A DNA stretch of 64,000 bases from Burkholderiales bacterium (lineage in GTDB: Bacteria > Pseudomonadota > Gammaproteobacteria > Burkholderiales > SG8-39), in the NCBI GenBank assembly GCA_020845995.1, contig JADLES010000089.1:320-64319 (forward strand). Direction: 5' to 3'. Positions 38,287-58,423 of the stretch are shown here, piece by piece (the stretch's first letter is position 1; each line of letters starts with the position of its first letter). The translations under genes were made by a program, and so were the position numbers. The notes beneath the pieces were generated by a model. It was not told where the DNA came from. It saw nothing but the letters and a program-made list of their open reading frames with translations, and did not search any database.

Positions 38287-38532
38287 CGTGATCTCCCCTG
38301 GGCAGTGCGGCTCTCAGGATACGCCTTGGGGCGCAAGGCATGCTTGCCGAGTTCCTTTCCGTTTCGCCAGCCGAAAGTTCGTTGGTGAACCGCCTGTACC
38401 GCCTGGCTGCTGCGCCGCCCGTTCGGAATGGCCTCCCGGCAGCGTCGATCGGGAGTTTCGCAAATCGCGCAGCCGCGCCGCGCAAGCCCGAGCGCCTATC
38501 CTATAATTCAACCGATCAAGAGGAGGCTCACC

Positions 38533-42581: not shown

Positions 42582-42619
42582 CGCGAGATTATATAAGCGG
42601 CCCCCGGTAGAATCGACGC

Positions 42620-43267: not shown

Positions 43268-43289
43268 GGATGTTCTGAACAGGCCCGGT

Positions 43290-44096
43290 TCACGCCTCGC
43301 CGCCGGCAGCGAAGGCGGACAGGCTGCGGTTGAACTCGTCGAGCTCTTCGAAAAACGGGCAGTGCGCGCTCTCGGCAAAACGGACCAGCCGGGCGTTCGG
43401 CAGGTGGCGCGCGAGATAGACGCCTCCCTCGTAACGGTTCTTGGCGTCGTGCACGCCGTGCATCACCAGGACCGGCTGGCGGATGCGCGCCAGGTACTGG
43501 CGATGATCGACACTGGCGAGGTCGGCCATCAGCTGCTTGATGACGTACACCGGCCAGGCGAGAGCCATCTGCAGCCCCGCCATCTTGTACGCCTGTCCAG
43601 GATCCTTGTGGAACAGCCAGCGCTCGAGCAGGTCCCAGTTGGCCTGAGGATTGTTGCGCGCGATCCCCTCGCTCAACCCGCGCGTGAACTGCTCGCTGAA
43701 TCCGCCCGAGCCGGACTTGTCGCCGGTGAACCAGGGTGCGGCGGCGCACAGGGCCAGACGCGCCGCGACCTCGGGATGCCGGGCGACACAGCGCAGCACG
43801 ACGTGGCCCCCCAGACCGTGACTGACCAGGGTCGCATCCGCGAGGTGCAGCGCGCGCACGAGCTCGGCCAGGTCGTCGGCCAGCCGGTCGCAGGTGTAGC
43901 CCGCGGGCGGCTTGTCCGATCCGCCGACCCCGCGATGGTCGTAGGTGATGGTGCGAAACCGGTCGGCCAGATCGCAGACCTGCTGCTCCCACGCGGCATG
44001 CGTGGCCGCGCCGCCGTGCACGAACACGATCGGCCGGCCGCTGCCGAATTCCTCGTAGTACAGCCGCACGCCGTCCGACATGGTTGCGCGGGGCAT
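43290..44096 (-). CDS. Alpha/beta hydrolase
   Basis: 268 aa with IVFVHGG and a nucleophile-elbow-like LVSHGLGG (the usual Ser position is Leu). C-terminal AHCPFFE His motif. Confidence 0.8.
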   Translation of the reverse strand: MPRATMSDGVRLYYEEFGSGRPIVFVHGGAATHAAWEQQVCDLADRFRTITYDHRGVGGSDKPPAGYTCDRLADDLAELVRALHLADATLVSHGLGGHVVLRCVARHPEVAARLALCAAAPWFTGDKSGSGGFSEQFTRGLSEGIARNNPQANWDLLERWLFHKDPGQAYKMAGLQMALAWPVYVIKQLMADLASVDHRQYLARIRQPVLVMHGVHDAKNRYEGGVYLARHLPNARLVRFAESAHCPFFEELDEFNRSLSAFAAGGEA

Positions 44097-44108
44097 GGCA
44101 GCGATTCG

Positions 44109-45407
44109 CTAGCGCGCGACCGGCGCGTTCAACGCCACCGGCGATGGCCGGGGCGGGTGCCTGGCGAGGTAGCGCTTGATGCCGGCGAGGATCGCGATCG
44201 CCAGCTGCGCCTGGTAGTCCTCGTCGTTGAGGCGCTTCTCTTCGGCCGGGTTGGAGATGAAGGCGGTTTCCACCAGGATCGAGGGCACGTCGGGCGATTT
44301 CAGCACCGCGAAGCTCGCCTGCTCGACGCGCGCTTTGTGCAGCGTGTTCACCTGACCGAGCTCGCCCAGCACCGCCTTGCCCAGGCGCAGGCTGTGGTCG
44401 ATAGTCGCGGTCTGCGACAGGTCCAGCAGGGTCTGCGCGAGGTACTTGTCCTTCACGTCGATGTTGACGCCGCCGACCAGGTCGGCTTCGTTCTCCTTCT
44501 TCGCCAGCCAGCGCGCCGCTTCCGAGGTGGCGCGCCGCTCCGAGAGCGCGAACACGCTCGAGCCGCGCGCGTTGGGCCGGATGAAGGCGTCGGCGTGCAC
44601 CGAGACGAAGAGGTCCGCCCGCACGCGCCGCGCCTTGTCGACGCGCAGTTGCAGCGGCACGTAGTAGTCGCCGTCGCGCGTCAGCAGCGCGCGCATGTCG
44701 GTTTCCGCGTCGATCAGCGCTTTCAGGCGCCTGGCGATCGTCAGGGTGATGTCCTTCTCGCGCGAGCCGTGCCGGCCGCGCGCGCCGGGATCTTCGCCGC
44801 CGTGCCCGGGATCGATGACGATGGTGGCCATGCGCGTCACGCGCGGCCTCTCGGGCGGCGGCGCGGCTTCCTCCCTGCGCGCGGGCGCCTCCCGCGCGGG
44901 CAGCTTGCCGTCGGCCTGGATCAGCGCGGCGAGCGGGTCGGGCGCAACCAGCGGGTAGAGATCGATCACCAGCCGGTAGCCGTATTCGCCGACCGGCTTG
45001 AGGACGAACACCTGCGGCTTCACCTCGGTCTTGAGGTCGAGGACCAACCGCAGCACCCCCGGCCGGTTGCGTCCGGCGCGCAGCTTGTCGATGTAGGGGT
45101 CGCCCGCGGCGACCTTGCCCTGCAGGTCGGCGACAGCCGGCCCGTACTCCGCGCCTTCCAGGTCGAGGACGAGGCGCTCGGGGTCTTTGACCACGAAAAG
45201 CTCGAACCTGATCTGGGCTTTCGATTCCAGCGTGACGCGCGTGTAGTCCTTCGCCGGCCAGATCCGGGTGGAAACGATCTGTGCCTGCGCCGTGACGGCG
45301 CCTATGAAGAGCGCCAGCGCGACAAGGCCGCGGCGAGCCAGGCCTCGCCCGCGGGGGAATGCGCGGTGAGCGTCGCGCGGCGCGACGGATTCTCCGTGTC
45401 GCCGCAA
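44109..45407 (-). CDS. amiC: N-acetylmuramoyl-L-alanine amidase with AMIN domain
   Basis: AMIN domain (IWPAKDYTRVTLES...LVLDL), and catalytic IVIDPGHGGEDPGA, SVHADA, ETAFISNP. The start is uncertain. TTG at 45407 is the nearest in-frame start upstream of the RRGLVALALFIGAVTAQA signal, and it overlaps tsaE by 106 nt. Confidence 0.85.
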   Translation of the reverse strand: MRRHGESVAPRDAHRAFPRGRGLARRGLVALALFIGAVTAQAQIVSTRIWPAKDYTRVTLESKAQIRFELFVVKDPERLVLDLEGAEYGPAVADLQGKVAAGDPYIDKLRAGRNRPGVLRLVLDLKTEVKPQVFVLKPVGEYGYRLVIDLYPLVAPDPLAALIQADGKLPAREAPARREEAAPPPERPRVTRMATIVIDPGHGGEDPGARGRHGSREKDITLTIARRLKALIDAETDMRALLTRDGDYYVPLQLRVDKARRVRADLFVSVHADAFIRPNARGSSVFALSERRATSEAARWLAKKENEADLVGGVNIDVKDKYLAQTLLDLSQTATIDHSLRLGKAVLGELGQVNTLHKARVEQASFAVLKSPDVPSILVETAFISNPAEEKRLNDEDYQAQLAIAILAGIKRYLARHPPRPSPVALNAPVAR

Positions 45408-45811
45408 TATTCGAGCAAGAGGTCGAGATCGGGCCTGGGCAGAAGGTCCCCGGCCCGCTCCGGCCACTCGACCACGCAGAGCGATTCCGCATTGAAGTGC
45501 TCGCGGAAGCCGGAACTCAGCCATTCTGCTCGATCCTTGATCCTATAAAAATCAAAGTGATACAAGTTTAATCTCAAATCGGCATAAGGTTCAACCAGGG
45601 CGTAGGTAGGACTCTTGACCCGCCCCAGGTAGCCCAGGGCGCGCAGCAAGCCTCTGACCAGGGTGGTTTTTCCGGCACCAAGCTCCCCGCGCAGATGCAG
45701 GGTCCGGCCGCCCGCCGCTGCGGCGGCGCAGGCCCCGCCCAGCCGCAGCGTCGCCGCCTCGTCGGGCAGCTCGACCTGTGTCCCGCCGAGCCCGCTACGA
45801 TGCTCCGCCAT
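45302..45811 (-). CDS. tsaE: tRNA threonylcarbamoyladenosine biosynthesis ATPase TsaE
   Basis: Contains LRGELGAGKTTLVRG, and the SPTYALVEPY, LYHFDFYR, VVEWPE motifs. Confidence 0.9.
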   Translation of the reverse strand: MAEHRSGLGGTQVELPDEAATLRLGGACAAAAAGGRTLHLRGELGAGKTTLVRGLLRALGYLGRVKSPTYALVEPYADLRLNLYHFDFYRIKDRAEWLSSGFREHFNAESLCVVEWPERAGDLLPRPDLDLLLEYCGDTENPSRRATLTAHSPAGEAWLAAALSRWRSS

Positions 45812-46859
45812 GGATTACGCCGCGCTGGCGGACCGGATCAAGCAGTGGGGGCGCGAACTCGGCTTCCAGGCCGTGGGCATTGCGGACACCGATCTGTCGG
45901 CCGCGCAAGGCCGCCTCGCCGAATGGCTCGGACTGGGCTGGCACGGCGAGATGGATTATATGGCGCGCCACGCGCAGCTCCGCGCGCAGCCGGGGCGGCT
46001 GCTCGAGGGAACGGTGCGCGTCATCGCCTGCCGCATGGATTATGTGGACGACGCGGTGGCGCCGCTGGAGGCAGAACTTGCCGACCGCTCGCGCGCCTAC
46101 ATCGCGCGCTACGCGCGCGGGCGCGACTACCACGGGCTCGTGCGCGGGCGCCTGCAGAAGCTGTGTGAGCGGATCGCTGCGCAAACCGGTCCTTTCCGCC
46201 ACCGCGCGCTCGCCGACTCCGCGCCGGTCATGGAGGTGGAGCTCGCCGCGCGCGCCGGCATCGGCTGGCGCGGCAAGCACACGCTGCTGCTCGACCGGGA
46301 AGGCTCCTGGTTTTTTCTCGGCGAGATCTACTGCGACTTGCCTCTCCCCGCCGATGCGGAGAGGGATAGCCATTGCGGCAGCTGCGAGCGCTGCATCGGG
46401 ATCTGCCCGACGCAGGCCATCATCGCGCCCTACCGGCTCGATGCGCGCCGCTGCATCTCGTACCTCACGATCGAGCACAAGAGCGCGATCCCCGAGGAGC
46501 TGCGCCCGCTGATCGGCAACCGCGTCTACGGCTGCGACGACTGCCAGCTCGTCTGTCCCTGGAATGGATTCGCGGGGGTGTCGCGGGAAAAGGACTTCCA
46601 GGCGAGGAACGGACTGGACCGCGCCGCCCTGCTGGAGCTGTTCGCCTGGACCGAGGCGGAGTTCGACGAGCGCCTGCGCGGCTCGCCGATCCGGCGCATC
46701 GGCTACGAGCGCTGGCTGCGCAATCTTGCCGTCGGCCTGGGCAATGCGCCCACGTCCCCGGCAGTGATCGGCGCCCTGCAGAAAAAGCGACACCATCCCT
46801 CCCCGCTGGTGCGCGAGCACGTGGCCTGGGCGCTATCACGTCACGGAGTGGCCTCCTGA
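45810..46859 (+). CDS. queG: Epoxyqueuosine reductase
   Basis: ATG at 45810. Contains IGWRGKHTLLL, ferredoxin motifs CGSCERCIGICPTQA and CDDCQLVCPWN, and C-terminal HEAT-like HPSPLVREHVAWAL. Confidence 0.93.
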   Translation: MDYAALADRIKQWGRELGFQAVGIADTDLSAAQGRLAEWLGLGWHGEMDYMARHAQLRAQPGRLLEGTVRVIACRMDYVDDAVAPLEAELADRSRAYIARYARGRDYHGLVRGRLQKLCERIAAQTGPFRHRALADSAPVMEVELAARAGIGWRGKHTLLLDREGSWFFLGEIYCDLPLPADAERDSHCGSCERCIGICPTQAIIAPYRLDARRCISYLTIEHKSAIPEELRPLIGNRVYGCDDCQLVCPWNGFAGVSREKDFQARNGLDRAALLELFAWTEAEFDERLRGSPIRRIGYERWLRNLAVGLGNAPTSPAVIGALQKKRHHPSPLVREHVAWALSRHGVAS

Positions 46860-46940
46860 CGCGCGCCACGGCGCCGCTCGACAGAACCTGCGCGACACGG
46901 CAACATCGGGCCTGACCTAGACACCCTGGAGGAGGGGATC

Positions 46941-48086
46941 ATGGCAAGACAGGCATTCGTGCTCGCGGCCGCGCTCGCGGCCTTCGCGGGCGGCGCTCTC
47001 GCGCAGGCGCCCAAGCTGCCCCAGACCTTGACGCTGACCGCCTACGACACGGGCTCGTCCGGCTTCAATATCGCCGTCGCGGTGGGCAAGGCGCTCAAGG
47101 ACCGGCACGGCACCGACACGCGCGTGCTGCCCGCGGGCAACGACGTGGCGCGCCTTGCGCCGCTGAAGGGCGGGCGCGCGCAGGCCTCGTTCATGGGCAT
47201 CGGCGTGTATTTCGCGCAGGAGGGCGTGTTCGAGTTCGCGGTCAGGGACTGGGGCCCGCAGGCGCTGCGGCTCGTGCTCGCGTCCATCGACTGCAACGCC
47301 GTCTCGCTCGGCGTCGCCAAGGACACGGGCGTGAAGCAGGTGAAGGACCTGAAGGGCAAGCGCATCGGCGTCGTGGTCGGCTCGCCCGCCCTCAACCAGA
47401 ACGCGTTCGCGGTGCTCGCCTTCGGCGGGGTCGCCAAGAACCAGGTCAAGCTGGTTGAATTCTCGAGCTACGGCGCGATGTGGAAGGGCATCCTCAATAA
47501 CGAGGTGGATGCCGCCATCGCCTCGACCATTTCCGGCCAGGCGAAGGAAGCCGAGGCTTCGCCCCGCGGCCTGGTGTACCCGCCGACCCCGGCCGCTGAC
47601 AAGGCCGGCTGGCAGCGCCTGCGCGAGATCGGCCCCTACTACTCGCCGCACAAGGCCACCTGCGGGGGCGGGGCCACGCCACAGGCGCCGATCGAGCTTC
47701 CCAGCTATCCCTACCCGATCCTCAGCGCCTACGCGACCCAGCCCGCGGACCTCGTTTACGCGCTCACCAAGGCGATGATCACGGACTACGCGGCCTACAA
47801 GGACGGCGCGCCGGGCGCGGCCGGGCTGGAGCTCTCTCGGCAGAACCTCGCCTGGGTGCTGCCGTACCACGAGGGGGCCGTGAGGGCGATACGCGAGGCG
47901 GGCGCCTGGAAGCCCGAGCATGAGGCGCACCAGCAGAAGGCGCTCAAGCGACAGCAGACGCTCGCCGCCGCCTGGGCCGCGTTCCTCAAGACGAACCCGC
48001 CCGAGGGCGGCGACGCCTTCCGCAAGGCCTGGATGACGGTGCGCAACTCTACGCTGCAGAAAGCCGGTTTCGACACGGTGTTCTGA
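46941..48086 (+). CDS. TAXI-family TRAP transporter solute-binding protein
   Basis: Signal peptide MARQAFVLAAALAAFAGGALA-QA. Contains TGSSGFNIAVAVGKAL and the VKDLKGKRIGVVVGSPALN pattern of NMT1/TAXI receptors. GGAGGAGGGG Shine-Dalgarno. Confidence 0.85.
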   Translation: MARQAFVLAAALAAFAGGALAQAPKLPQTLTLTAYDTGSSGFNIAVAVGKALKDRHGTDTRVLPAGNDVARLAPLKGGRAQASFMGIGVYFAQEGVFEFAVRDWGPQALRLVLASIDCNAVSLGVAKDTGVKQVKDLKGKRIGVVVGSPALNQNAFAVLAFGGVAKNQVKLVEFSSYGAMWKGILNNEVDAAIASTISGQAKEAEASPRGLVYPPTPAADKAGWQRLREIGPYYSPHKATCGGGATPQAPIELPSYPYPILSAYATQPADLVYALTKAMITDYAAYKDGAPGAAGLELSRQNLAWVLPYHEGAVRAIREAGAWKPEHEAHQQKALKRQQTLAAAWAAFLKTNPPEGGDAFRKAWMTVRNSTLQKAGFDTVF

Positions 48087-48095
48087 GCCGGCGGC

Positions 48096-50069
48096 GTGAC
48101 GGTCGGCCCGCAGGAAGCGGAGGTCGTCCGCGTCCGCCGCCTCCCGGGCGTCTGGCGCGCCCTGCTGATCGCCGCCGCCGCGGCGACGATCTTCCTTTGC
48201 GTCAACCAGCAGTTCGTCCTGCGCTTCTTCGTCGGCTTCACTCCGCTCAACACCGAGTACTACTACGGCCTCGTGCTGGTGATGCTGCCGTTCGTGTTCG
48301 TGATCTTTCCGGGCAGCGCGCGCGCGCCTCTGGACCGCGTCGCCTGGGTCGACGCGGCGCTGTTCGCGCTCACGGCGGCCACTGCCGCCTACCTGATGCT
48401 GCACATCCGCAAGGCGGCCGAACTGGGCTGGGAGTTCAGCGGCGCGCCCGCCGGCGTGGTCTGGGCGGGCTATGCGATGTGGGCCCTGCTCATGGAGGCG
48501 CTGCGGCGCACCGGCGGCTGGGGACTCGTGCTTTCGGTGCTGCCCTTCTCTCTCTATCCGGTGTTCGCCGGCGCCGACTGGCTGGGGCCGTTGAAGGGCA
48601 CGGAATCGACCTTCGCGCAGGCGAGCGCCTACCACATGCTCTCGGTGGAGAGCCTGCTCGGCATCCCGCTGCAGGCGTTCGCCGAGACCGTGATCGGCTT
48701 TCTCGTCTTCGGCACCGCGCTGATGATGACCGGCGCCGGCAAGTTCTTCATCAACCTCGCGTTCGCGCTCTGCGGCACGTTCCGCGGCGGCGCAGCCAAG
48801 GTGTGCATCTTCGCCAGCGGACTGCTCGGCATGATGTCGGGCAGCGTGGTCTCCAACGTGCTCACCGCGGGCACGATGACCATTCCGGTGATGAAGAAGA
48901 CCGGCTTTCGCGCCTCCTACGCGGGCGCGATCGAGGCCTGCGCCTCCACCGGCGCGGTGCTCGCGCCGCCGGTGATGGGCGCGACCGCGTTCGTGATGGC
49001 CCAGTTCCTCAACGTCAGCTACGCCGAGGTGGCGCTCGCCGCGGCGATCCCCGCGTTCCTCTACTACTTCGGGCTGTTCATGCAGGTGGACGCGTATGCC
49101 GCGCGCCACGGCCTGCAGGGCCTCGCGCGCGCCGAACTGCCGCGCCTGGCCGACACGCTGCGCGAGGGCTGGTACTACATCTTCGTCATCGTGCTGCTCG
49201 TGTTCATGATGCTGGTGATGAAGCGCGAGAGCCACGCGCCTTTCTACGCGACGCTGCTCCTGCTTGCGCTCAACCAGGCGTTCAACCGCGAGCGCTGGAC
49301 CTGGGCCACCGTGGCGCGCTTTCTCGAGGTCAACGGCCGCACCTTCGCCGAGCTGGTCGGCATCCTCGCCGGCTGCGGCCTGCTGATCGGCGCCTTCTCG
49401 CTCACGGGCGTGGTTTCCAGCCTCGCCAACGACCTGCTGCGCATCGCCGGCAACAACGCGCTGCTGCTGCTCGCCATGACCGCGCTGACCAGCCTGGTGC
49501 TGGGCCTGGGCCTGACCACCACCGCCTGCTACATCTTCCTCGCGGTGCTGGTCGGGCCGGCGCTGGAGAAGGTGGGTCTCAACAAGATGGCGGTGCACAT
49601 GTTCGTGTTCTACTGGGGGATGCTCTCGGCGATCACGCCGCCGGTGGCGATCGCCTCGTTCGCCGCCGCCGGCATCGCCGGCGCGCCGCCGATGAAGACC
49701 GGCTGGGAGTCGATGCGCGTGGGCAGCATCATCTACTTCCTGCCGTTCTTTTTCGTCCTCAACCCCGCGTTCGTGCTGCAGGGGCCCTGGCTCGAGGCGC
49801 TCTACCTCACGCTCACCGCGGGTCTGGGCGCGGTCTTCATCTGCGGCGGCATGCAGGGCTACCAGCTCGGCGTGGGTGACCTGCGGCGCGCGGGCGCGCT
49901 CGAATGGCCGTTGCGCTGCGCCTACATGGTCGGCGGCGTCGTGCTCGCCACGCCCGGCGGCGGCATCATGCTGCTGTCGAACGCCGAGATGGAGCTGCTC
50001 GGCGCGGCAATCCTGGTGCCCGCGGCGGCGGCCGGCGCGCTGCTTGTGCGCCGCGCGCGCGCCGCATGA
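48096..50069 (+). CDS. TRAP transporter fused 4TM/12TM permease (TAXI-associated)
   Basis: 657 aa with a GTG start, highly hydrophobic, DctM-like core (SGLLGMMSGSVVSNVLTAGTMTIPVMKK). Confidence 0.9.
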   Translation: MTVGPQEAEVVRVRRLPGVWRALLIAAAAATIFLCVNQQFVLRFFVGFTPLNTEYYYGLVLVMLPFVFVIFPGSARAPLDRVAWVDAALFALTAATAAYLMLHIRKAAELGWEFSGAPAGVVWAGYAMWALLMEALRRTGGWGLVLSVLPFSLYPVFAGADWLGPLKGTESTFAQASAYHMLSVESLLGIPLQAFAETVIGFLVFGTALMMTGAGKFFINLAFALCGTFRGGAAKVCIFASGLLGMMSGSVVSNVLTAGTMTIPVMKKTGFRASYAGAIEACASTGAVLAPPVMGATAFVMAQFLNVSYAEVALAAAIPAFLYYFGLFMQVDAYAARHGLQGLARAELPRLADTLREGWYYIFVIVLLVFMMLVMKRESHAPFYATLLLLALNQAFNRERWTWATVARFLEVNGRTFAELVGILAGCGLLIGAFSLTGVVSSLANDLLRIAGNNALLLLAMTALTSLVLGLGLTTTACYIFLAVLVGPALEKVGLNKMAVHMFVFYWGMLSAITPPVAIASFAAAGIAGAPPMKTGWESMRVGSIIYFLPFFFVLNPAFVLQGPWLEALYLTLTAGLGAVFICGGMQGYQLGVGDLRRAGALEWPLRCAYMVGGVVLATPGGGIMLLSNAEMELLGAAILVPAAAAGALLVRRARAA

Positions 50070-50950
50070 GCGCGTGGGCGGCCGACCGGCAGCTCGCGGG
50101 CTTCGAAGCGCTCGAGCTGCCCGCGCCCGACGACTACGACGGGCGCGTGGTCGCGACGCTCGTGCGGCTGCCCGCGGGCGACGCGCCCGAAGGCGCCGTG
50201 CTTTACGTGCACGGCTTCATCGACTACTTTTTCCAGCGCCACATGGCCGAGCGCTTCGCCGCCGAGGGCTACGCGTTCTACGCGCTCGACCTGCGCAAGC
50301 ACGGCCGCTCGCTGCTGCCGCACCAGCATCCCTGCTTCTGCAAGGACCTCGCGGAATACCACGACGACATCACGCGCGCGCTGGAGGCGATCGGCACCAA
50401 CGTGCTGCTCGCGGGGCACTCGACGGGCGGTCTGGTTTGCTCCTTGTATTGTCATGAAGGGAAACGGAGAGACCGCATCCGCGCGCTCTGGCTGAACAGC
50501 CCGTTCCTCGACTGGCGCGAGTCGCACAAGGGCAGGCTGCGCATCGCGCAGTTTCTCGGCTGGTTTTCGCCCTTCCTGCACGACCCCAAGGCGGTGCTGC
50601 CCGAGTACGTGCGCAGCCTGCACCGCGACTGGGGCGGCGAGTGGGAGTTCGACCTGACGCTCAAGCCCGAATATGGCTTCCCGGCCTACTTCGGCTGGGT
50701 GCGCGCGATCTTCGAGGCGCATCGAAAAATACACGCGGGGCTCGGCCTGGGGATCCCCGTGCTGTCGATGCACTCGGACGGGGCCGACATCGTGCTCGCC
50801 TGGAAATCGATCGCGCGCTGGTCGCGCGCGCTCGGCCCGGAGGTCGCGGTGCAGGCGTTCCCGGGGGCCCTGCACGATCTCGTGCTCTCGCGCCGCGAGA
50901 TCCGCGAAGCCGTGTTCCGCCAGCTCTTCGCCTGGGCGGCGCGACACTGA
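50066..50950 (+). CDS. Alpha/beta hydrolase (lysophospholipase/monoacylglycerol-lipase-like)
   Basis: The ATG overlaps the permease stop (ATGA). Contains VLYVHGFIDY, nucleophile elbow GHSTGG, and C-terminal ALHDL (His). Confidence 0.85.
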   Translation: MSAWAADRQLAGFEALELPAPDDYDGRVVATLVRLPAGDAPEGAVLYVHGFIDYFFQRHMAERFAAEGYAFYALDLRKHGRSLLPHQHPCFCKDLAEYHDDITRALEAIGTNVLLAGHSTGGLVCSLYCHEGKRRDRIRALWLNSPFLDWRESHKGRLRIAQFLGWFSPFLHDPKAVLPEYVRSLHRDWGGEWEFDLTLKPEYGFPAYFGWVRAIFEAHRKIHAGLGLGIPVLSMHSDGADIVLAWKSIARWSRALGPEVAVQAFPGALHDLVLSRREIREAVFRQLFAWAARH

Positions 50951-50977
50951 TTCGAGGCGGCCGGCGAGAATGCCACC

Positions 50978-51835
50978 ATGATCACCCACGTCCCCCTGCC
51001 CGACCTCGCCGGAAAGCACGTCATCGTCACCGGCGCGAACACGGGCATCGGCAAGGTCACGGCGATCGCGCTCGCCCGCGCGGGCGCGCGCGTGTGGCTC
51101 GCCTGCCGCTCGCGCGAGCGGACCCAGGCGGTCCTCGACGAAATCGGCGCGAATGCGGAGTTCCTGCCGCTGGACCTGGCCAGCCTCGCGTCGGTCCGCG
51201 AAGCGGCGGCCGCGTTTCTCGCGCTGGACGCGCCGCTGCATCTGCTCGTCAACAACGCCGGCCTCGCCGGGCAGCGCGGCCAGACCCGCGACGGCTTCGA
51301 GCTGGCGTTCGGCGTCAACCACCTGGGTCATTTCCTCTTCACGATCCTGCTGCTGGAGCGCCTCAAGGCGTCGGCGCCGGCGCGCATCATCAACGTGGCG
51401 AGCCGCTCGCATTACCAGGCGCGCCGCGGCATCGACTGGGAGCGGCTGCGGGGCCGCACGCGCACTCTGACCGGCCTGGAAGAATACGCGGTGTCAAAGC
51501 TGGCCAACGTGCTGTTCACGCGCGAGCTGGCGCGCCGCCTGCACGGCGCCGGCGTGACCGTGTGCAGCCTGCATCCCGGGGTGATCGCCAGCGAAATCTG
51601 GCGGGGCGTGCCCTGGCCGCTGCGGCAACTCATGCTCGGCTTCATGAAAACCCCCGAAGAGGGCGCCCGCACCGGCCTGTGGTGCGCCACGGCGCCGGAG
51701 ATCGCCGAGCGGAGCGGGGGCTACTTCGACGGCTGCCGCGAGCGCCGCCCGTCGCGCTTCGCGCTGGATGTCGCGCTCGCCGGCGAGCTGTGGCGACGCA
51801 GCGAAGCCTGGGCGGGGCTCGCGCCCGCCGGTTGA
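50978..51835 (+). CDS. Short-chain dehydrogenase/reductase (retinol-dehydrogenase-like)
   Basis: Contains VTGANTGIGK, NNAG and YAVSKLAN (YxxxK). Confidence 0.9.
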   Translation: MITHVPLPDLAGKHVIVTGANTGIGKVTAIALARAGARVWLACRSRERTQAVLDEIGANAEFLPLDLASLASVREAAAAFLALDAPLHLLVNNAGLAGQRGQTRDGFELAFGVNHLGHFLFTILLLERLKASAPARIINVASRSHYQARRGIDWERLRGRTRTLTGLEEYAVSKLANVLFTRELARRLHGAGVTVCSLHPGVIASEIWRGVPWPLRQLMLGFMKTPEEGARTGLWCATAPEIAERSGGYFDGCRERRPSRFALDVALAGELWRRSEAWAGLAPAG

Positions 51836-51880
51836 TCCACATCAATTCGGCCGCGCGCGTTCCGTAAATAATTCTTCACA

Positions 51881-53299
51881 ATGAGGATCTTGCTGATCAA
51901 TCCGCCGTGCGGGCCGCGCACGATCGGGTTGAAGAATATCGCCAAGATCGAACCGCTCGGCCTGGAACTGGTCGGGGCCGGCGTCTCGGGCGTGCATGAA
52001 GTGCGGCTCGTCGACATGGAAGTCCGCCCAGAAGATCTCCAGGAGACGCTGCGCGGCTTCACGCCGGATGTCGCGGGCGTGACTTCCGAGATCGTGCACG
52101 TCGAGACCGCGCTGGCGGCGCTGCGGCAGGTGCGCCGCGCCGCGCCGGACTGCCTGACCGTGGTCGGCGGCCATCATCCGACGCTGCATCCTCAGGATTT
52201 CCACGACGACGCGGTCGATCTCATCGTCATCGGCGAAGGCATCGAGACCTTCGCGGAGATCTGCGCCGCGCGCGCCGCCGGCGAGCGCGCCTTTGCCGGC
52301 GTTCGCGGGATCGTGCGCCGCACGCAAGGGGGATTTGTCCGCAACGGCGCGCGGCCCCTGCCCGCGAACCTGGACGCGCAGCCGATGCCGGACCGCTCGC
52401 TCACCGCCCGCTACCGGGACCGCTACTACTATCTCTTCGAGGACTCGGTGGCGGCGGTGCGGACCTCCGCCGGCTGCTCCTTCCCCTGCATCTTCTGCTC
52501 GTGCCGCGTCTACTCGCAGGGCGCTTTCATCCCGCGCTCGCCGGAGCTGGTATTCGAGGAGATCGCCTCCCTCAAGGAGGAGTTCGTGATGTTCTGCGAC
52601 GATCATTCGTTTCACGACCCGGAGCGCATGCGCAGGCTCGGCCAGATGCTTCTCGACGCCGGGATCAAGAAGCGTTACTTCGCCTACGCGCGCGCGGATT
52701 CGATCGTCGCCGACCGCGAAGTGTTCAGGATCTGGGCGAAGGCCGGGCTGTTCCTGGTCATGACCGGGCTGGAATCGCTCGACCACGACACCCTGCGCAA
52801 TATCGGCAAGAAGATCGAAGACGACATCAACGAGCGCGCCATCGCGGTGCTCGCGGAGCTGGGCATCCACATGAGCGCGGGTTTCCTCGTCGAACCTGAC
52901 TTCGACGCCGAGGATTTCGCGCGCATCGACCGGTATGTGGACGCGCACCCGTCGATCCTTCTGGTGGAATTTACGCCGACCACGCCGTTTCCGGGCACGC
53001 CCCTGTATCGCAAGAAAGAGGGCGAGCTGCTCACCGCCGACCGCCAGGTCTACGATTTGCAGCATTTCCTCATGAAGACGGCCCTGCCACCGCGCGAGCT
53101 CTACCGCCTGATGATGAAGTCCTACGGCAAGGTCGTCCTGCGCGTGATCCGGCGGCTCGGCCTGTGGCGTCCGCAGGTGCTGTTCTCGCGGCGCATTCTG
53201 CGCCTGATCGCCGGGCTGGCGCGCAGCCAGCGCCAGCTCTGGCGGGCGCACAAGGACGTGCCTGCGCCGGGGCTCGCGCCGGTCGAGCGCACCGGATGA
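51881..53299 (+). CDS. B12-binding-domain radical SAM protein (class B)
   Basis: N-terminal Rossmann-like RILLINPP...EPLGLELVGA...VVGGHHPT. Cluster motif SAGCSFPCIFCS (CxxxCxxC). 472 aa, function unknown. No obvious Shine-Dalgarno and an AT-rich upstream region. Confidence 0.9.
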   Translation: MRILLINPPCGPRTIGLKNIAKIEPLGLELVGAGVSGVHEVRLVDMEVRPEDLQETLRGFTPDVAGVTSEIVHVETALAALRQVRRAAPDCLTVVGGHHPTLHPQDFHDDAVDLIVIGEGIETFAEICAARAAGERAFAGVRGIVRRTQGGFVRNGARPLPANLDAQPMPDRSLTARYRDRYYYLFEDSVAAVRTSAGCSFPCIFCSCRVYSQGAFIPRSPELVFEEIASLKEEFVMFCDDHSFHDPERMRRLGQMLLDAGIKKRYFAYARADSIVADREVFRIWAKAGLFLVMTGLESLDHDTLRNIGKKIEDDINERAIAVLAELGIHMSAGFLVEPDFDAEDFARIDRYVDAHPSILLVEFTPTTPFPGTPLYRKKEGELLTADRQVYDLQHFLMKTALPPRELYRLMMKSYGKVVLRVIRRLGLWRPQVLFSRRILRLIAGLARSQRQLWRAHKDVPAPGLAPVERTG

Positions 53300-54195
53300 A
53301 CGGCGCGCCGGCGCCGGCGCTGGAGTACCTCGGCTGGTCGGGCCTGCGCATTGCCGGGACGGGCGGCGAGCTCTGCATCGACCCGCCCGCAGGCGCCGCG
53401 CTCGCGCTCGACCGGCCGATGCACGCGCTCCTTACGCACGGCCACCCCGAGCACGTCGCGGGGACGCTCGCGCACCTGCGCAACCCGGCGCGCACCGCGC
53501 CGGTGCGCGCGGCGGCAGCGGCGCCGGTGTGCCGATACCTGCGCCGGCACGCGGTCGTCCCCGGGGACCAGATCGAGGCCTGCGCGCCGGGCCAGCGGTT
53601 CGACATGGCCGGGTTTGCCATCGACGTGTTCGAATGGCAGCACATGCCGCTGCTGCCCCCGGGGATCGGCGCGGCCCTGCAGCGGCTGATGACGATCGCG
53701 GCGCGCCCCCGTCTCGCCGCGAACATCGTGTTGTCGGGGATGCGCGGTCCCTGGCCGTTTCCGATGCTCGGCTTCCGCCTCTCGGGCGCGGAGGGGGCTC
53801 GCATCCTCGTGTACGGAGAAGGGTTGCATCGGCGAACCGACAGCGGCGAGCTGGATCGCATCCGCGAGGCGCTGCCGGCGGATCTCCTCCTCGCGGCTGT
53901 CGAACCGGAGGACGCGGAGGTGTTGCCGGACCTGTTCCGCAGGATCGGCGCCCCGGCAGTCGGACTGTACGAGGCGCATCGCCCCTGGCGGGAGGCTTTC
54001 GGCATGCCGCTCGCCGATCTCGACGCGCTGGCGGCCGCGGTCGCCGGCATCGGCCTGCGAGCGGCAGTCCTCAGGCCCGGCATGGCGGACCCGGCCACGC
54101 TCCCGCAGGCACTCAGCGTCGAATCCGGCGCAAAGGCGGCGCTCGAGCGCAAGCCTCCGTTCAGCTCAGCGGGTTCTCCCAGCGCAGGCCCTTGA
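53296..54195 (+). CDS. MBL-fold-like protein with HGHPEH motif (hypothetical)
   Basis: The ATG overlaps the radical SAM stop (ATGA). LLTHGHPEH resembles HxHxDH with Glu in place of Asp. The rest is poorly conserved to my eye. The last 35 nt overlap convergent vapC. Confidence 0.65.
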   Translation: MNGAPAPALEYLGWSGLRIAGTGGELCIDPPAGAALALDRPMHALLTHGHPEHVAGTLAHLRNPARTAPVRAAAAAPVCRYLRRHAVVPGDQIEACAPGQRFDMAGFAIDVFEWQHMPLLPPGIGAALQRLMTIAARPRLAANIVLSGMRGPWPFPMLGFRLSGAEGARILVYGEGLHRRTDSGELDRIREALPADLLLAAVEPEDAEVLPDLFRRIGAPAVGLYEAHRPWREAFGMPLADLDALAAAVAGIGLRAAVLRPGMADPATLPQALSVESGAKAALERKPPFSSAGSPSAGP

Positions 54196-54589
54196 ACCGG
54201 CCGAAGTCCAGGTCGGTGGAGCACAGCACTGCGTCGTGGGTGATGGCGAGCGCGGCGAGATGCGCATCCGTGGTCAGGTTGCCGGCGGTGCCGGCGGACG
54301 CAATCAGGTCTCGCAGCGTGTCCCAGTGATCTTCCTTTTCCCGCACGATGCGAACGCTGTCCAGGGCCAGCCAACGGTCGATTCGTACAAGGGCGGAGCG
54401 AACGTCGTGGGGCGCCGCGAATATCCTGGGGTTGGTGACGATGCGCAAGAAGCCGGCGAGTACGATCCACGGCAGGCCGATTGCCTCCTCACCATTGACC
54501 AGCTCCTCCCACCACGCGCGCACGGATCGATGCTGGGCGGCGTTCGAATCCACGGCGTACAGCAGGATGTTGACGTCGACGATCTTCAC
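54161..54589 (-). CDS. vapC: Type II toxin, PIN-domain ribonuclease VapC
   Basis: 142 aa with MKIVDVNILLYA (first acidic residue), TDAHLAALA and STDLDF. Confidence 0.9.
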   Translation of the reverse strand: MKIVDVNILLYAVDSNAAQHRSVRAWWEELVNGEEAIGLPWIVLAGFLRIVTNPRIFAAPHDVRSALVRIDRWLALDSVRIVREKEDHWDTLRDLIASAGTAGNLTTDAHLAALAITHDAVLCSTDLDFGRFKGLRWENPLS

Positions 54590-54852
54590 TTGCCGAGCGC
54601 GAGCTTGCGTACGATCTCTTCGTCTTCGAGCGCGGCCGCCAGCGCCAGTGCCTTGGTCAGATCTACTTTGGCGGGCCCCATCGGCAGCGGGTGTTCCCGG
54701 TAGCGTTTTCGCCTCGACTTAGGTTGACGAGAAGCGCGCAACCCCTCGCGGAGCGCCCGGTTAAGCGCGCGCGTCATGCTGACCTTGTCCTTGCGGGCGC
54801 GCGCCTGCAACTGCTCGGCTAACTCATTATCCAGACGGACTGTCGTGCGCAT
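54586..54852 (-). CDS. vapB: Type II antitoxin VapB (ribbon-helix-helix-like)
   Basis: 88 aa. MRTTVRLDNELAEQLQARA is a typical RHH N-terminus. Its stop overlaps the vapC start by 4 nt. Confidence 0.75.
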   Translation of the reverse strand: MRTTVRLDNELAEQLQARARKDKVSMTRALNRALREGLRASRQPKSRRKRYREHPLPMGPAKVDLTKALALAAALEDEEIVRKLALGK

Positions 54853-54859
54853 ATTGGCA

Positions 54860-54893
54860 TCATAGCACCAAGTAACTTGATGTCATAGCATCA
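54860..54893 (-). promoter_or_regulatory. Candidate vapBC promoter/operator
   Basis: AT-rich 40 nt upstream of vapB. Direct repeat TCATAGCA at 54860-54867 and 54883-54890. Inverted repeat TGATG-N6-CATCA at 54878-54893. Confidence 0.3.
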
Positions 54894-55253
54894 TTTCTTA
54901 TGGACCGGAATCAACCACAGCGTTACCAGCGCCGCGGTGGCCCAGCTCGCGTAAAGCAGGGTAAACACCCATTCCGGAGCGTCGTAGTAAAGCAGGCGCG
55001 CCACCCAGCGGCCGACGAAGCTCTCGGGCCGCGCGCCGCCGCGCAGCGCGTCCTCCCAGACGGTGAGCGGGCACATCAAGCCGGCGAGCGCCTCGAGCGC
55101 GACGCAGGCGATGGCGGCCAGGTGCAGGTAGCGGAACCAGGGATTGCGCACCCAGACCCAGCCGGCGAGCGCGCCGATCCAGACCAGGATCAGGCCGAGG
55201 ACGAGGAAGCCGGCGACGCAGAAATGTAGAACGAGGACGAGATCGGCGAGCAA
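54891..55253 (-). CDS. DUF2784 family membrane protein
   Basis: Proposed TTG start at 55253, giving (M)LADLVLVLHFCVAGFLVLG. Contains CPLTVWE. The upstream 170 codons of tracked ORF 54891..55763 lie in an alternate frame across the rhodanese gene and are rejected. Confidence 0.65.
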   Translation of the reverse strand: MLADLVLVLHFCVAGFLVLGLILVWIGALAGWVWVRNPWFRYLHLAAIACVALEALAGLMCPLTVWEDALRGGARPESFVGRWVARLLYYDAPEWVFTLLYASWATAALVTLWLIPVHKK

Positions 55254-55260
55254 TTCCCGC

Positions 55261-56088
55261 CTACGCGCTCCGCGAGATCGGCCGCGCCGGGTCCGTCGAC
55301 CACTCGCTCCAGGAGCCGACGTACACGCGCGAGCCCGGCATGCCCGCGAGCTCCATCGCCAGCGCGTTGTGGCAGGCGGCGACCCCCGAGCCGCAGTAGT
55401 GGATGACTTCGCCGGGGTTTCTTCCGGAAAGAATTTTCTCGAACTCCGCGCGCAGGAGTTCCGCGCTCTTGAAGGTTCCTTCGGCCGAGAGGTTGTCGCT
55501 ATTGAAGCGGTTCTTCGCGCCGGGGATACGCCCGGCGACCGGATCGATCGGTTCCTGCTCGCCGCGGTAGCGTTCCGGCGCGCGCGCATCGAGCAAGGCC
55601 GCGCGCTTGAGCTTCTTTTCGACGAGCGTGAGGCTGGCGTGCATCGAGGCCCTCGCCTTGCCCGGGTAGGGCGCGGCCGCGAAGGCCGGCACCTCGGCCG
55701 TGATCGGCCGGCCCTCGCGCCGCCACTTGGCGAGGCCGCCATCGAGCACCGCGACCTGCTCATGTCCCGCCCAGCGCAGCATCCACCACAGGCGCGAGGC
55801 CATGGCGCCGGGGCCGCCGTCGTAGCACACCACCGTGTCGGCGGGCTTGAGGCCCTGGCGGCCCAGCCAGGCGATGAAGGTCTTCGCCTCCGGCAGCGGA
55901 TGCCGGCCGTTCTTTCCGGTCAGCGCGCCCGACAGGTCGCGGTTCAGGTGCGCGAACGAAGCGCCCGGGATGTGCGCCTCCTGGTATTGCCGTTCGCCGA
56001 GCGCGGGATCGGCGAGCTCATGGCGGCAGTCGAATACCCGCCACTCGGGATGCGTGGCCAGCTCATCGGTCGAGACGAGCTGCTTCAT
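55261..56088 (-). CDS. sseA: Two-domain rhodanese sulfurtransferase (thiosulfate/3-mercaptopyruvate type)
   Basis: The ATG at 56088 overlaps the upstream stop (ATGA). Contains HIPGA, the active-site loop YCGSGVAAC, and C-terminal GSWSEW. Confidence 0.9.
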   Translation of the reverse strand: MKQLVSTDELATHPEWRVFDCRHELADPALGERQYQEAHIPGASFAHLNRDLSGALTGKNGRHPLPEAKTFIAWLGRQGLKPADTVVCYDGGPGAMASRLWWMLRWAGHEQVAVLDGGLAKWRREGRPITAEVPAFAAAPYPGKARASMHASLTLVEKKLKRAALLDARAPERYRGEQEPIDPVAGRIPGAKNRFNSDNLSAEGTFKSAELLRAEFEKILSGRNPGEVIHYCGSGVAACHNALAMELAGMPGSRVYVGSWSEWSTDPARPISRSA

Positions 56089-57185
56089 GCCGGCTTCTCC
56101 AGCTCGCGGCGCAGCCATTCGTGAAAGTGCACCATCGCGTCCTCCATCGGGGATTGATAGGGCCCGGCGTCGTCGTGGCCGGCCTGCCACAGCGCGCGGC
56201 GGCCGCGGTCCATGCGCTGCTGGATTTCGTCATCCTCCAGCGCGGTTTCCATGTAGGCGGCCTGCTGGGCCTCGACGAACTCGCGCTCGAAGTGGGCGAT
56301 CTCCTCGGGGTAGTAGAACTCGACCACGTTGGTGGTCAGCTCCGGCGTGCGCGGGATCAGGTTCGAGACGACCAGCACGTTCGGATACCACTCGAGGGTC
56401 AGTCCCGGAAAATAACTTGCCCAGAGCGCGCCGTACTTCGGCGTGGCGCCGCCGAGATGCGCAAGGCATGCCTCGTGCCACTTGCGATAGACGGGTGTGC
56501 CCGGCGCCGCCAGGGCGTTCTTCGCCGGGACCACCTGCACCGAATAGTGCTCGCCGGCCTCGACATGAAAGCGGTCGCAATCGGCGAAGTTTCCCAGGCC
56601 GGCGTGGAACGGATTGACGTGGTAGACCTCGAGGTACACCTCGACAAAGGTCTTCCAGTTGCAGCGGTAGTCGGTGGTTTCGACACGGTCCAGCACGTAG
56701 CCGGAGAAGTCGAAATCCGCGGCGGTGCGCATGCCCGCGAGGTCCCTGCGCGGGTCGCGCGGCCCTGCGAACAGCAATCCGTTCCAGCGGCTGAGCGGCC
56801 GCGAGTCGAGCTTCGCGCAGGGCGTCTCGTCGAAACGTGGGGCGCCGAGCAGTTCGCCCTTCAGGTCGTAGGTCCAGCGGTGCAGCGGGCAGACGATGTT
56901 CCGCAGCTTGCCGCGGCCCTCCAGCATGATCGCCTGGCGGTGGCGGCAGACATTCGACAGCAACTCTACGCCGCCGTCGTTGCGAACCAGCACCTTGGCG
57001 TGATCCATCCACCCGAGCGTCTGGTAGTCGCCCGGCTCCGGCACCATCAGCTCGTGGCCGACGTAGTTGGCGCCTGCGGAGAACAGCTTCTGCTCGCGCG
57101 CGAAGACCTCGGGATCGAAATACCAGGAAACCGGGAGCTGGCAGCGCGCGGGGCGGAGTCGCGCGGGAATGGCAAGGGAGGACAT
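56085..57185 (-). CDS. Rieske [2Fe-2S] non-heme-iron oxygenase, alpha-subunit-like
   Basis: Rieske motif CRHRQ...CPLHRW. The catalytic-domain region EVYLEVYHVNPFH carries His ligands. ATG at 57185 is preferred over the tracked GTG at 57206. Confidence 0.85.
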   Translation of the reverse strand: MSSLAIPARLRPARCQLPVSWYFDPEVFAREQKLFSAGANYVGHELMVPEPGDYQTLGWMDHAKVLVRNDGGVELLSNVCRHRQAIMLEGRGKLRNIVCPLHRWTYDLKGELLGAPRFDETPCAKLDSRPLSRWNGLLFAGPRDPRRDLAGMRTAADFDFSGYVLDRVETTDYRCNWKTFVEVYLEVYHVNPFHAGLGNFADCDRFHVEAGEHYSVQVVPAKNALAAPGTPVYRKWHEACLAHLGGATPKYGALWASYFPGLTLEWYPNVLVVSNLIPRTPELTTNVVEFYYPEEIAHFEREFVEAQQAAYMETALEDDEIQQRMDRGRRALWQAGHDDAGPYQSPMEDAMVHFHEWLRRELEKPA

Positions 57186-57228
57186 GCCGTAAGTGCTTAA
57201 AGGCACGGGATTTTACATGAATCCTGGT

Positions 57229-57257
57229 TTGACCCGCCAACGCCCCTCGGTTATGGT
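57229..57257 (+). promoter_or_regulatory. Sigma-70-like promoter for xseB-ispA-dxs
   Basis: TTGACC (57229-57234), a 17-nt spacer, then TATGGT (57252-57257). The -10 ends 11 nt before the xseB ATG. Confidence 0.4.
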
Positions 57258-57268
57258 GGCAACCCCCT

Positions 57269-57544
57269 ATGCGCAAGAAAGAATCGGGCGCCGCGGAGCC
57301 GAGCTTCGAGAAGGCGCTGGCAGAGCTCGAGACGCTGGTCGCGAGAATGGAAGAGGGCGGCCTCACCCTGGAGCAGTCGCTGGCGGCGCACAAGCGCGGC
57401 CTGGAACTCGCCCGCCAATGCCGCGAGCGCCTGACGGCCGCGCAGCAGCAGGTGCGGGTGCTGGAGGGCGAGGTCCTCAAGCCTTTCGCAAACGACGCGC
57501 TTCGGCCCGCGGGCGGCGCCGCCGATGACGGCGATCGCGGCTGA
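57269..57544 (+). CDS. xseB: Exodeoxyribonuclease VII small subunit
   Basis: 91 aa with SFEKALAELETLVARMEEGGLTLEQSL. Confidence 0.9.
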   Translation: MRKKESGAAEPSFEKALAELETLVARMEEGGLTLEQSLAAHKRGLELARQCRERLTAAQQQVRVLEGEVLKPFANDALRPAGGAADDGDRG

Positions 57545-58421: not shown

Positions 58422-58423
58422 GC

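Follow-up and report, generated by a model that had tools for sequence, protein, structure and literature searches.

The question raised by a 64-kb stretch of a Burkholderiales genome (contig JADLES010000089.1; the whole 64,000 nucleotides analysed are referred to as the window) is whether six co-directional genes at positions 46941-54195 belong to one pathway. The genes encode a TAXI-family TRAP solute-binding protein, a TRAP permease, an alpha/beta hydrolase, a short-chain dehydrogenase/reductase (SDR), a class B (cobalamin-dependent) radical S-adenosylmethionine (SAM) enzyme, and a metallo-beta-lactamase (MBL)-fold protein. The initial annotation allowed two readings, a single route of uptake and modification or two adjacent modules. 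The modular reading held and was refined to at least three units, whereas synteny, the 32 loci at which the radical SAM gene was found, and an FNR-type box spoke against the single route. In our view, the six genes are likely to form a mosaic of three or more units with an FNR-linked radical SAM/MBL core and not one pathway.

The array was compared with three syntenic relatives (L041, L043, and L044), which are long contigs with hydrolase orthologues and the backbone of the window (mutL, VTT, amiC, tsaE, queG ... DUF2784, rhodanese, Rieske oxygenase, xseB-ispA-dxs, and folE2). The relatives differed from the window exactly at the genes flagged above. In the window, the backbone gene queG (epoxyqueuosine reductase; 45663-46859, + strand; Pfam QueG_DUF1730 and Fer4_16), which preceded the hydrolase gene in the ancestral order and whose true start probably lies about 100 nt inside the open reading frame (ORF), is followed by the TAXI, permease, hydrolase, SDR, radical SAM, and MBL genes and a PIN/RHH pair. 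In L044 (hydrolase 76% identical), the hydrolase gene overlaps queG and the rhodanese gene comes directly after it, so that the slot is empty and TRAP genes are missing. L043 (79%) has the hydrolase gene and then a TctC receptor gene after queG, again without TRAP genes. L041 (88%) has the TAXI, permease (92% identical to that of the window), and hydrolase genes with the same ATGA overlap, followed by TctC and PIN/RHH. The window and L041 were aligned by blastn at about 86% identity over 44127-50936 and 54163-60000, and the 3.2 kb between these blocks (50937-54162), comprising the SDR, radical SAM, and MBL genes, did not align and stood opposite 972 bp encoding TctC. The same three-gene cassette occupied the same slot in L045, a short contig of a second lineage, with DUF2784 directly after it and identities to the window of 79% (SDR), 85% (radical SAM), and 67% (MBL). 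No terminal repeats or mobile-element signature flanking the cassette were found in a repeat search.

Because of the gene orders in L041, L043, and L044 and the blastn alignment with L041, the hydrolase gene reads as part of the backbone with a tie to queG, the TRAP pair as an insertion upstream of it in one sub-lineage, and the SDR, radical SAM, and MBL genes as a cassette in a variable slot downstream of it. The hydrolase itself has thousands of homologues with 75-88% identity in metagenome-assembled genomes (MAGs) of Burkholderiales. The transporter-hydrolase coupling proposed in the initial annotation stands as an ATGA overlap, but its functional meaning is weakened, as the hydrolase gene follows queG without TRAP genes in L043 and L044. 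The tight junctions and ATGA overlaps of the array would have arisen by insertion and cassette replacement and must not be taken as the sign of a pathway.

The radical SAM and MBL genes were a conserved unit in other genomes. A genome scan with one genome per species yielded 32 radical SAM loci, and MBL adjacency was scored in the 31 with room for it. The MBL-like gene was located directly downstream on the same strand in all 31, and none of the 32 loci contained the TAXI, permease, or hydrolase gene or an orthologue of the SDR gene of the window. The occurrence of the pair without the transporter, which the initial annotation had named as the sign of separate modules, was thus found. The 32 loci belonged to Steroidobacteraceae and other Gammaproteobacteria, Alphaproteobacteria (Kordiimonas, Emcibacter, Sphingomonadales, and Rhodospirillaceae), Bdellovibrionales, Myxococcota, and Planctomycetota, and the nearest relatives of the pair in the genome collection were from Steroidobacteraceae and gammaproteobacterial MAGs (77-79% identity). 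Several proteins (P0010-13, P0069, and P0097) were single-polypeptide fusions of 744-774 aa with the MBL domain at the C-terminus, which bears out the earlier description of the two proteins as welded together. The AlphaFold (AF2) model of the fused form had a pLDDT (predicted local distance difference test) of 90 and a disordered linker; in Foldseek, one half matched class B radical SAM structures and the other half matched MBL structures. A second, remoter clade (radical SAM 48% and MBL about 35% identical) kept the pairing; its loci examined were one actinobacterial (Solirubrobacterales) and one of unassigned phylum, and its MBL matches included a Chloroflexi protein. Judged from these sequences, the pair is conserved over Pseudomonadota, Myxococcota, Bdellovibrionota, Planctomycetota, and Actinomycetota, and it probably also occurs in Chloroflexota. 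The two proteins read as a two-subunit enzyme that is fused in some organisms. No published description of the pair was found in the literature searched (B12 radical SAM and MBL, FNR, UbiTUV, HpnR/BchE, and Sphingopyxis granuli anoxia), and an MBL partner is likewise not mentioned in a 2026 review of these B12 enzymes. As far as these searches and the review show, the pair is undescribed.

The start of the radical SAM gene in the window was associated with a perfect FNR/Anr/FixK-type box, TTGATCCACATCAA (TTGAT-N4-ATCAA; 51832-51845, + strand), which overlaps the SDR stop codon and was the sole match in the 64 kb even when one mismatch was allowed. A candidate -10 hexamer, AATAAT, was read at 51867-51872 (+ strand), 31 bp from the centre of the box (51838.5) to its own centre. 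The spacing fits a class II FNR promoter, whose site is centred near -41.5 from the transcription start, and it predicts a start at about 51879-51880, at the ATG (51881) of the radical SAM gene. As the predicted start adjoins this ATG and no Shine-Dalgarno sequence precedes it, the radical SAM mRNA is probably leaderless or nearly so. In L045, a perfect box, TTGATCCATATCAA, was found at the same -49 offset with AATAAT kept and the spacer diverged, and in the alphaproteobacterial locus L006, a box with one mismatch was found at the same -49 offset.

Boxes were also counted over the family in the 300 nt that precede the first gene of the module. Of 36 loci, 10 had a box with at most one mismatch, compared with an expectation of 0.4 loci when the sequences were shuffled with their dinucleotides preserved (maximum of 3 in 1000 shuffles). 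The exact form TTGAY-N4-RTCAA was present in 11 of 39 loci, compared with 0.03 expected from shuffles and 0.13 from its density elsewhere in the same loci. The ubiTUV genes, which adjoin the pair in some of these genomes, have been reported to be FNR-regulated with conserved FNR sites across Pseudomonadota (PMC11707229).

The cassette includes a third gene, and a three-gene functional unit, in which the classical SDR works with the radical SAM and MBL proteins and replaces an extended SDR, is quite possible, although we would stop somewhat short of calling it probable. The SDR gene (50978-51835, + strand) encodes a classical SDR oxidoreductase (adh_short, 105 bits) with the motifs TGANTGIG (TGxxxGxG) and YAVSK (YxxxK), and the protein falls in the PRK06197/retinol-dehydrogenase/LPOR-like subgroup, with a PRK06197 score of 194 bits, below the cut-off of 268. 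The SDR, radical SAM, and MBL genes come and go together in comparison with L041, L043, and L044 and are kept together in L045, and a gene of the SDR superfamily abuts the pair in about 20 of 39 loci (an extended SDR in 16). An extended SDR (Pfam 3Beta_HSD/Epimerase) lies directly upstream of the pair on the same strand in 14 loci, convergently downstream in L001, and before the fused gene in L035. Other classical SDR genes overlap or abut the pair in L003 and L013. Since an SDR-superfamily gene is so frequently beside the pair, a dehydrogenase step is plausibly part of its chemistry.

Against the classical SDR of the window as a fixed member of the unit, the FNR box comes after the SDR gene, which is not under that promoter, and the SDR subclass differs case by case. 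The window-type SDR accompanies the pair only in the closest lineage (the 79% identical orthologue upstream of the pair in L045). None of 80 metagenome loci with SDR relatives of 42-65% identity has that gene next to a radical SAM or MBL gene, and the nearest relatives of the pair outside the lineage (L001, L002/L036, and L046) are without a window-type SDR. The best curated matches of the extended SDR were HpnA, OleD, and SdmB, all below their cut-offs, and these three act on, or are associated with, large lipids. No extended SDR was found in the 64-kb window.

A further element was observed upstream of the extended SDR gene. The conserved sequence ATTACATATATTAAAGATTG, with the palindrome TAATAT-N5-ATATTA, was located within the approximately 200 nt upstream of this gene, at varying positions, in L009, L010, L011, L016, and L020. 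It is common to Kordiimonadales/Emcibacter loci, is preceded by the promoter-like hexamers TTGCRC ... TATACT, and may be an operator for another regulator (the related L014 has a gene for a regulator of the NsrR/Rrf2 type nearby).

The genomic company of the pair in other genomes was recurrently, though not universally, that of anaerobic respiration and oxygen-independent cofactor genes. In L014/L033 (Kordiimonas), NsrR-ScdA-NorB genes were located upstream, and a sensor kinase, a channel of the formate/nitrite family, and a NarL-type regulator downstream. A complete nosZRDFYL-apbE cluster was located directly upstream of the fused form in L035. In L031 (a Sphingomonas MAG), ubiT-ubiU-ubiV, each above its NCBIfam equivalog cut-off, were contiguous and co-directional with the extended SDR, radical SAM, and MBL genes, with narG nearby. 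In L028, ubiV, ubiU, ubiT, napC, and napA were located immediately downstream of the pair, and narG was also present. Further neighbours were an adjacent ubiT (L021), hemN (L007), or scdA (L018), and hemN together with napC-type genes within 10 kb (L008 and L015). In the actinobacterial L129, the pair was preceded by a GAF-GAF-HisKA_3 (DosS-like) kinase gene and two GerE regulator genes and followed by feoBA and narGHJ.

The neighbourhoods raise the possibility that the pair acts in oxygen-independent biosynthesis or tailoring of respiratory quinones with UbiT/U/V, for example, by C-methylation or another change of the ring or side chain under anoxia. The contiguous ubiT-ubiU-ubiV-extended SDR-radical SAM-MBL array of L031, the adjacent ubiVUT of L028, and the adjacent ubiT of L021 would fit this, as would divergent U32 pairs, which share the FNR-box region in L032 and are adjacent in L020, and the SAM methyltransferase gene after the pair in L127. 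This explanation nevertheless appears unlikely. The pair also occurs in Myxococcota, Planctomycetota, and Actinomycetota, whose quinone, to our knowledge, is menaquinone and not ubiquinone. No additional enzyme is required by the known O2-independent route to ubiquinone, and no ubi genes are present in the window. The adjacency may mirror only shared FNR regulation (PMC11707229).

Other neighbours were recorded in individual loci. A gene for a SLAC1/TehA-family anion channel near the pair (L014/L033, 16085-17260; L129, 3036-4088) was 52% identical between the alphaproteobacterium and the actinobacterium, and HisKA_3 sensor kinase and GerE-type regulator genes were found near the pair in both phyla (L014/L033 and L129). 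In one locus of the second clade (L127/L128, 9877-11096), the pair was followed by the gene of an ABA4-like membrane protein (DUF4281) and that of a class I SAM methyltransferase and preceded by cobalamin-related genes (Peripla_BP_2 and CbiA); these neighbours may hint at a hydrophobic substrate and B12 supply. In the 77%-identical gammaproteobacterial relative L036 (7292-9866), the pair stood alone, followed by lepA, and was divergent from the genes of an ABC transporter of the molybdate/sulfate type, with an SBP_bac_11 receptor and a TOBE-domain ATPase.

The radical SAM gene (51881-53299, + strand) encodes a class B enzyme with PF02310 (66 bits; cut-off of 32) and PF04055 (52 bits; cut-off of 29.5). 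Its family is highly conserved (55-88% identity across phyla; 350 matches at E<=1e-10), and the CxxxCxxC cluster motif (C199, C203, and C206; 52475-52498, + strand) was invariant in an alignment of 30 sequences. The protein scored 220 bits with the HpnR model TIGR04367 (cut-off of 650) and 138 bits with the BchE model TIGR02026 (cut-off of 481). When the PDB was searched by sequence, the only matches were remote ones to class B enzymes (E of 5e-8 at best), and the N-terminal 460 residues of the fused form matched AprD4, TsrM, OxsB, CysS, TokK, and MgmA in Foldseek (E of 1e-18 to 1e-15). By these scores, the enzyme is nearest to HpnR and BchE, is a member of neither, and represents an uncharacterised class B subfamily; the clear orthology to a characterised enzyme that the initial annotation had proposed to look for was absent. 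No riboswitch or other RNA family, including the cobalamin riboswitch, was detected by Rfam anywhere in the 64-kb window.

The similarity to HpnR could indicate a methylase of triterpenoids or isoprenoid lipids with an HpnA-like partner. HpnR was the best family match (220 bits), HpnA, OleD, and SdmB were the best matches of the extended SDR partner, and some members of the family have been automatically annotated by the Joint Genome Institute as hopanoid C-3 methylase. Such a function is improbable, as the score is one third of the HpnR equivalog cut-off, and no squalene-hopene cyclase (shc) or other hopanoid (hpn) genes were found among the annotated neighbours in the window or the related loci examined. 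We also know of no obligate MBL-fold partner of, or MBL fusion to, HpnR or BchE, and the ispA-dxs genes of the window are housekeeping backbone genes present in relatives without the pair. A sterol or hopanoid reading based on the nearby Rieske oxygenase, the polyprenyl synthetase, and a 728-aa ORF was considered separately and rejected; the Rieske gene and xseB-ispA-dxs belong to the backbone and are found in pair-free relatives too.

The MBL gene (53296-54195, + strand) is located directly 3' of the radical SAM gene and ends with its stop codon at 54195. The protein scored 24.1 bits with PF12706 (Lactamase_B_2), below the gathering cut-off of 27. An AlphaFold model built on 35 homologues had a pLDDT of 88.5, and its Foldseek matches to MBL-fold structures had a probability of 1.0, template modelling (TM) scores of 0.52-0.59, and identities of 11-17%. 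The model thus confirms the MBL alpha-beta/beta-alpha sandwich fold despite the sub-threshold Pfam score. The metal motif HGHPEH (residues 48-53; 53437-53454, + strand) has the form HxHxEH in place of the canonical HxHxDH, a deviation that was recognised in the initial annotation and proved to be family-wide. The glutamate was kept in all but one of 35 homologues, the exception being aspartate. H48, H50, P51, and H53 were invariant, and E52 was at least 90% conserved. H116, E175, H178, E203, and H228 were also invariant, and E205 and D206 were at least 90% conserved. Because HGHPEH and these five further residues are conserved, the metal centre looks complete, which suggests a probably binuclear site with Glu for the usual Asp and not a decayed one. 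The family was small and sharply bounded, with 37 clusters at E<=1e-30 among 1.84 billion protein representatives.

The C-terminal tail of the MBL protein, approximately 30 residues (54106-54195), was modelled with low confidence as disordered. It is lineage-specific, most homologues lack it, and it appears to have arisen where the reading frame continues into the antisense strand of the PIN gene. The 3' ends of the MBL gene and the convergent PIN gene overlap by 35 nt.

As the MBL fold hosts di-iron centres in CmlA, which was among the fold matches, a role of the pair in the response to nitric oxide (NO) or nitrosative stress, such as repair or detoxification by a di-iron MBL-fold site, in place of a biosynthetic one was also weighed. 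It would agree with NsrR-ScdA-NorB directly upstream in L014/L033, ScdA adjacent in L018, and the DosS-like sensor in L129. This role is quite improbable, as no B12 radical SAM enzyme is known to take part in NO chemistry, the motif differs from the HxExDH of flavodiiron proteins, and most loci are without NO-related genes.

The remaining features of the array were as the initial annotation had described them: direct reading of the sequence reproduced the coordinates and junctions of the six co-directional genes, and curated profile models, with the structure model for the MBL protein, upheld the family labels. The TAXI-family receptor gene (46941-48086, + strand; TIGR02122, 214 bits against a cut-off of 84) is preceded by a strong Shine-Dalgarno sequence, GGAGGAGG. 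It is separated by a 9-nt gap (48087-48095) between its stop at 48086 and the GTG at 48096 from the gene for a fused DctQ/DctM-type TRAP permease (48096-50069, + strand; TIGR02123, 604 bits against a cut-off of 321; Pfam DctM, 378 bits). An ATGA overlap (50066-50069) joins the permease gene to the gene for a lysophospholipase-like alpha/beta hydrolase of the Hydrolase_4 family (50066-50950, + strand; PF12146, 73 bits against a cut-off of 27; GHSTG nucleophile motif). A 27-nt gap lies between the hydrolase stop at 50950 and the SDR ATG at 50978, and a comparatively AT-rich 45-nt gap between the SDR stop (TGA, 51833-51835) and the radical SAM ATG. The radical SAM and MBL genes share an ATGA overlap (53296-53299). 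The hydrolase and MBL starts (50066 and 53296) were backed by the same N-termini in orthologues. The TAXI-TRAP, hydrolase, and SDR genes are ordinary members of their families, and close, co-directional spacing with 4-nt overlaps is ordinary in a compact genome of 69% G+C and alone is no evidence of common function. Solved TAXI receptors in the PDB matched only as weak relatives (E of about 1e-9), too weakly for a substrate to be assigned to the receptor. The transporter tells nothing about the substrate of the radical SAM enzyme.

A single uptake-modification operon, in which TAXI-TRAP imports a compound that the hydrolase de-esterifies, the SDR oxidises, and the radical SAM/MBL pair modifies, could point to the six co-directional genes with gaps of at most 45 nt and two ATGA overlaps, to the lack of terminator-like sites at the junctions, and to the same arrangement on contigs of the same organism in several samples, but it is very improbable and already largely refuted by synteny, as relatives have the hydrolase without TRAP and TRAP with the hydrolase without the cassette, the pair is never with TRAP or the hydrolase in 32 loci, a separate FNR-type promoter signal precedes the radical SAM gene, and the hydrolase family is abundant in Burkholderiales while the closest relatives of the pair, at 77-79% identity, are in Steroidobacteraceae and gammaproteobacterial MAGs.

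The backbone around the array showed further variation. In the TRAP-free relatives, queG and the hydrolase gene overlap by 17 nt (L043, 6959-8888; L044, 6965-8900), which points to a conserved queG-hydrolase linkage in this Burkholderiales lineage. A PIN (VapC-like) toxin gene and an RHH antitoxin gene (54161-54852, - strand; Pfam PIN, and RHH_1 in the identical contig L037) lie between the MBL gene and DUF2784, where they bound the cassette on its downstream side and are not part of the module. Because the PIN/RHH pair was found in L041 and not in L043, L044, or L045, it reads as a further independent insertion into the same variable slot. Two further segments of the window were absent from the otherwise collinear L041, namely 42090-42607 with a YbaK/tRNA_edit-domain gene (42096-42581, - strand) and 43251-44126 with a second alpha/beta hydrolase gene (43290-44096, - strand), and the region from mutL to dxs is a hotspot of small gene gain and loss. 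Three receptor genes of the TctC/Bug family (tripartite tricarboxylate) are located close to one another (35441-36400, - strand; 37327-38286, - strand; and 38428-39483, + strand), and this expansion and the close homologues of the hydrolase suggest that the window is of Burkholderiales origin.

In the mosaic that we favour, the first unit would be the hydrolase gene, a conserved backbone gene normally located directly after queG. The second would be the TAXI-TRAP pair, whose insertion between queG and the hydrolase gene in one sub-lineage would have created the ATGA overlap. The third would be the 3.2-kb cassette in the variable slot after the hydrolase gene, with the radical SAM and MBL genes as its core. 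The pair would have a class II promoter of the FNR type to itself, which overlaps the SDR gene at its end, and would most likely be switched on when oxygen runs out, and the MBL gene would probably be translated by coupling from the nearly leaderless radical SAM mRNA.

The subunit with the [4Fe-4S] cluster, SAM, and cobalamin may carry out radical methylation or oxygen-independent oxidation of an unactivated carbon in a lipophilic substrate (a quinone, a tetrapyrrole, or an isoprenoid lipid), and the His/Glu-rich metal site of the MBL subunit may perform a coupled hydrolytic or redox step. The hint of a lipophilic substrate comes from the extended SDR being nearest to HpnA/OleD/SdmB and the radical SAM enzyme being nearest to HpnR/BchE. 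An NAD(P)-dependent enzyme of the SDR superfamily would often contribute an alcohol/ketone interconversion; in most genomes this would be the HpnA/OleD/SdmB-like extended SDR, and in the window the classical SDR may take its role. The module would then replace an oxygen-requiring step under anaerobic conditions, or complement it, and our best guess is that the pair provides an oxygen-independent tailoring step on a lipophilic molecule. A broader proposal, which we put forward tentatively and hold to be rather doubtful, is that the pair and its frequent HpnA/SdmB-like dehydrogenase form an unrecognised oxygen-independent system of facultative anaerobes. Analogous to HemN, BchE, and UbiU/V, this system would replace an oxygen-requiring step in the making or tailoring of a respiratory cofactor or membrane lipid, with a cobalamin radical SAM enzyme and an HxHxEH MBL centre as a new catalytic combination.

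Several points weigh against the favoured mosaic with an FNR-controlled pair. The substrate and reaction are entirely inferred, and the FNR site has been predicted from the sequence. Only about a third of the loci had an FNR-type box or anaerobic neighbours. Many loci are interrelated (Kordiimonadales), so that the counts are not independent and represent fewer events. Myxococcota and Bdellovibrionota loci have unrelated neighbours, and a Pfam census of 102 flanking ORFs in 13 loci gave no further recurrent partner. The SDR of the window is of another class than the usual partner and is located upstream of the FNR box. The predicted TM score of the fused-form model, 0.70, is too low for a specific inter-domain geometry or a defined domain interface. 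The initial annotation had pointed to a promoter and a terminator between the SDR and radical SAM genes as a sign of separation; a promoter-type signal, the perfect FNR box, was present, but a terminator scan found none at this or the other junctions. Because no terminator separates the SDR and radical SAM genes, read-through or co-transcription from upstream genes is possible. A consensus sigma-70 scan found no promoter in the region, which is expected for an activator-dependent promoter but is not positive evidence for one.

What makes the pair of interest is that a class B radical SAM enzyme has here an obligate partner of a new kind, and that the regulatory signature of the two is anaerobic. 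The FNR-type boxes, the DosS-like sensor, and the neighbouring genes for nitrate, NO, and N2O respiration, ubiTUV, and hemN point to a missing oxygen-independent reaction in supposed aerobes. If this is true, the pair would represent a new reaction type or partner architecture in class B radical SAM enzymology and a new anaerobic substitute for oxygenases. A culturable carrier exists (Kordiimonas lipolytica CGMCC 1.15304, locus L014), so that the hypothesis is directly testable.

Compared with known systems, the receptor and fused permease of the window are full members of the TAXI-TRAP transporters (TIGR02122/TIGR02123) by the curated cut-offs, and their link to the hydrolase is lineage-specific. 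Among class B radical SAM enzymes of solved structure, AprD4, TsrM, OxsB, CysS, TokK, and MgmA share the fold of the fused form but are only 15-19% identical to it in structural alignments; their substrates differ among each other, none has an MBL partner, and we know of none that is FNR-regulated. The MBL protein is related by fold to the Thermotoga TM MBL 3x2x, Igni18, YhfI, ElaC-like 1zkp, UlaG-like proteins, the CmlA/FrsH di-iron hydroxylases, NAPE-PLD, and PhnP, with which it has in common a motif 2 rich in His and additional conserved ligands, both His and acidic, and its family is set off from this superfamily by always being paired with one radical SAM subfamily. A precedent for the combination exists in pyrroloquinoline quinone (PQQ) biosynthesis, where the MBL-fold, iron-dependent, non-hydrolytic PqqB acts in the same pathway as the radical SAM enzyme PqqE. 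This is an analogy only, with no sequence relationship to the pair tested or seen; PqqE is a SPASM-domain enzyme and not a B12 enzyme, and the chemistry of PqqB uses O2.

The FNR-activated ubiTUV and hemN genes have the same kind of upstream TTGAT-N4-ATCAA site and adjoin the pair in several genomes, while their protein families are unrelated to the radical SAM and MBL proteins. HpnR and BchE resemble the enzyme of the window most closely; like it, they have a B12-binding domain at the N-terminus, ahead of a radical SAM core that contains CxxxCxxC, and they align with it over nearly the full length. The context of the pair differs from theirs, as most of its carriers are not phototrophs and hopanoid genes were not seen in its vicinity. 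BchE, the anaerobic Mg-protoporphyrin IX monomethyl ester cyclase, is the classic oxygen-independent counterpart of the oxygen-dependent AcsF, and this logic matches the regulatory logic proposed here for the radical SAM/MBL pair.

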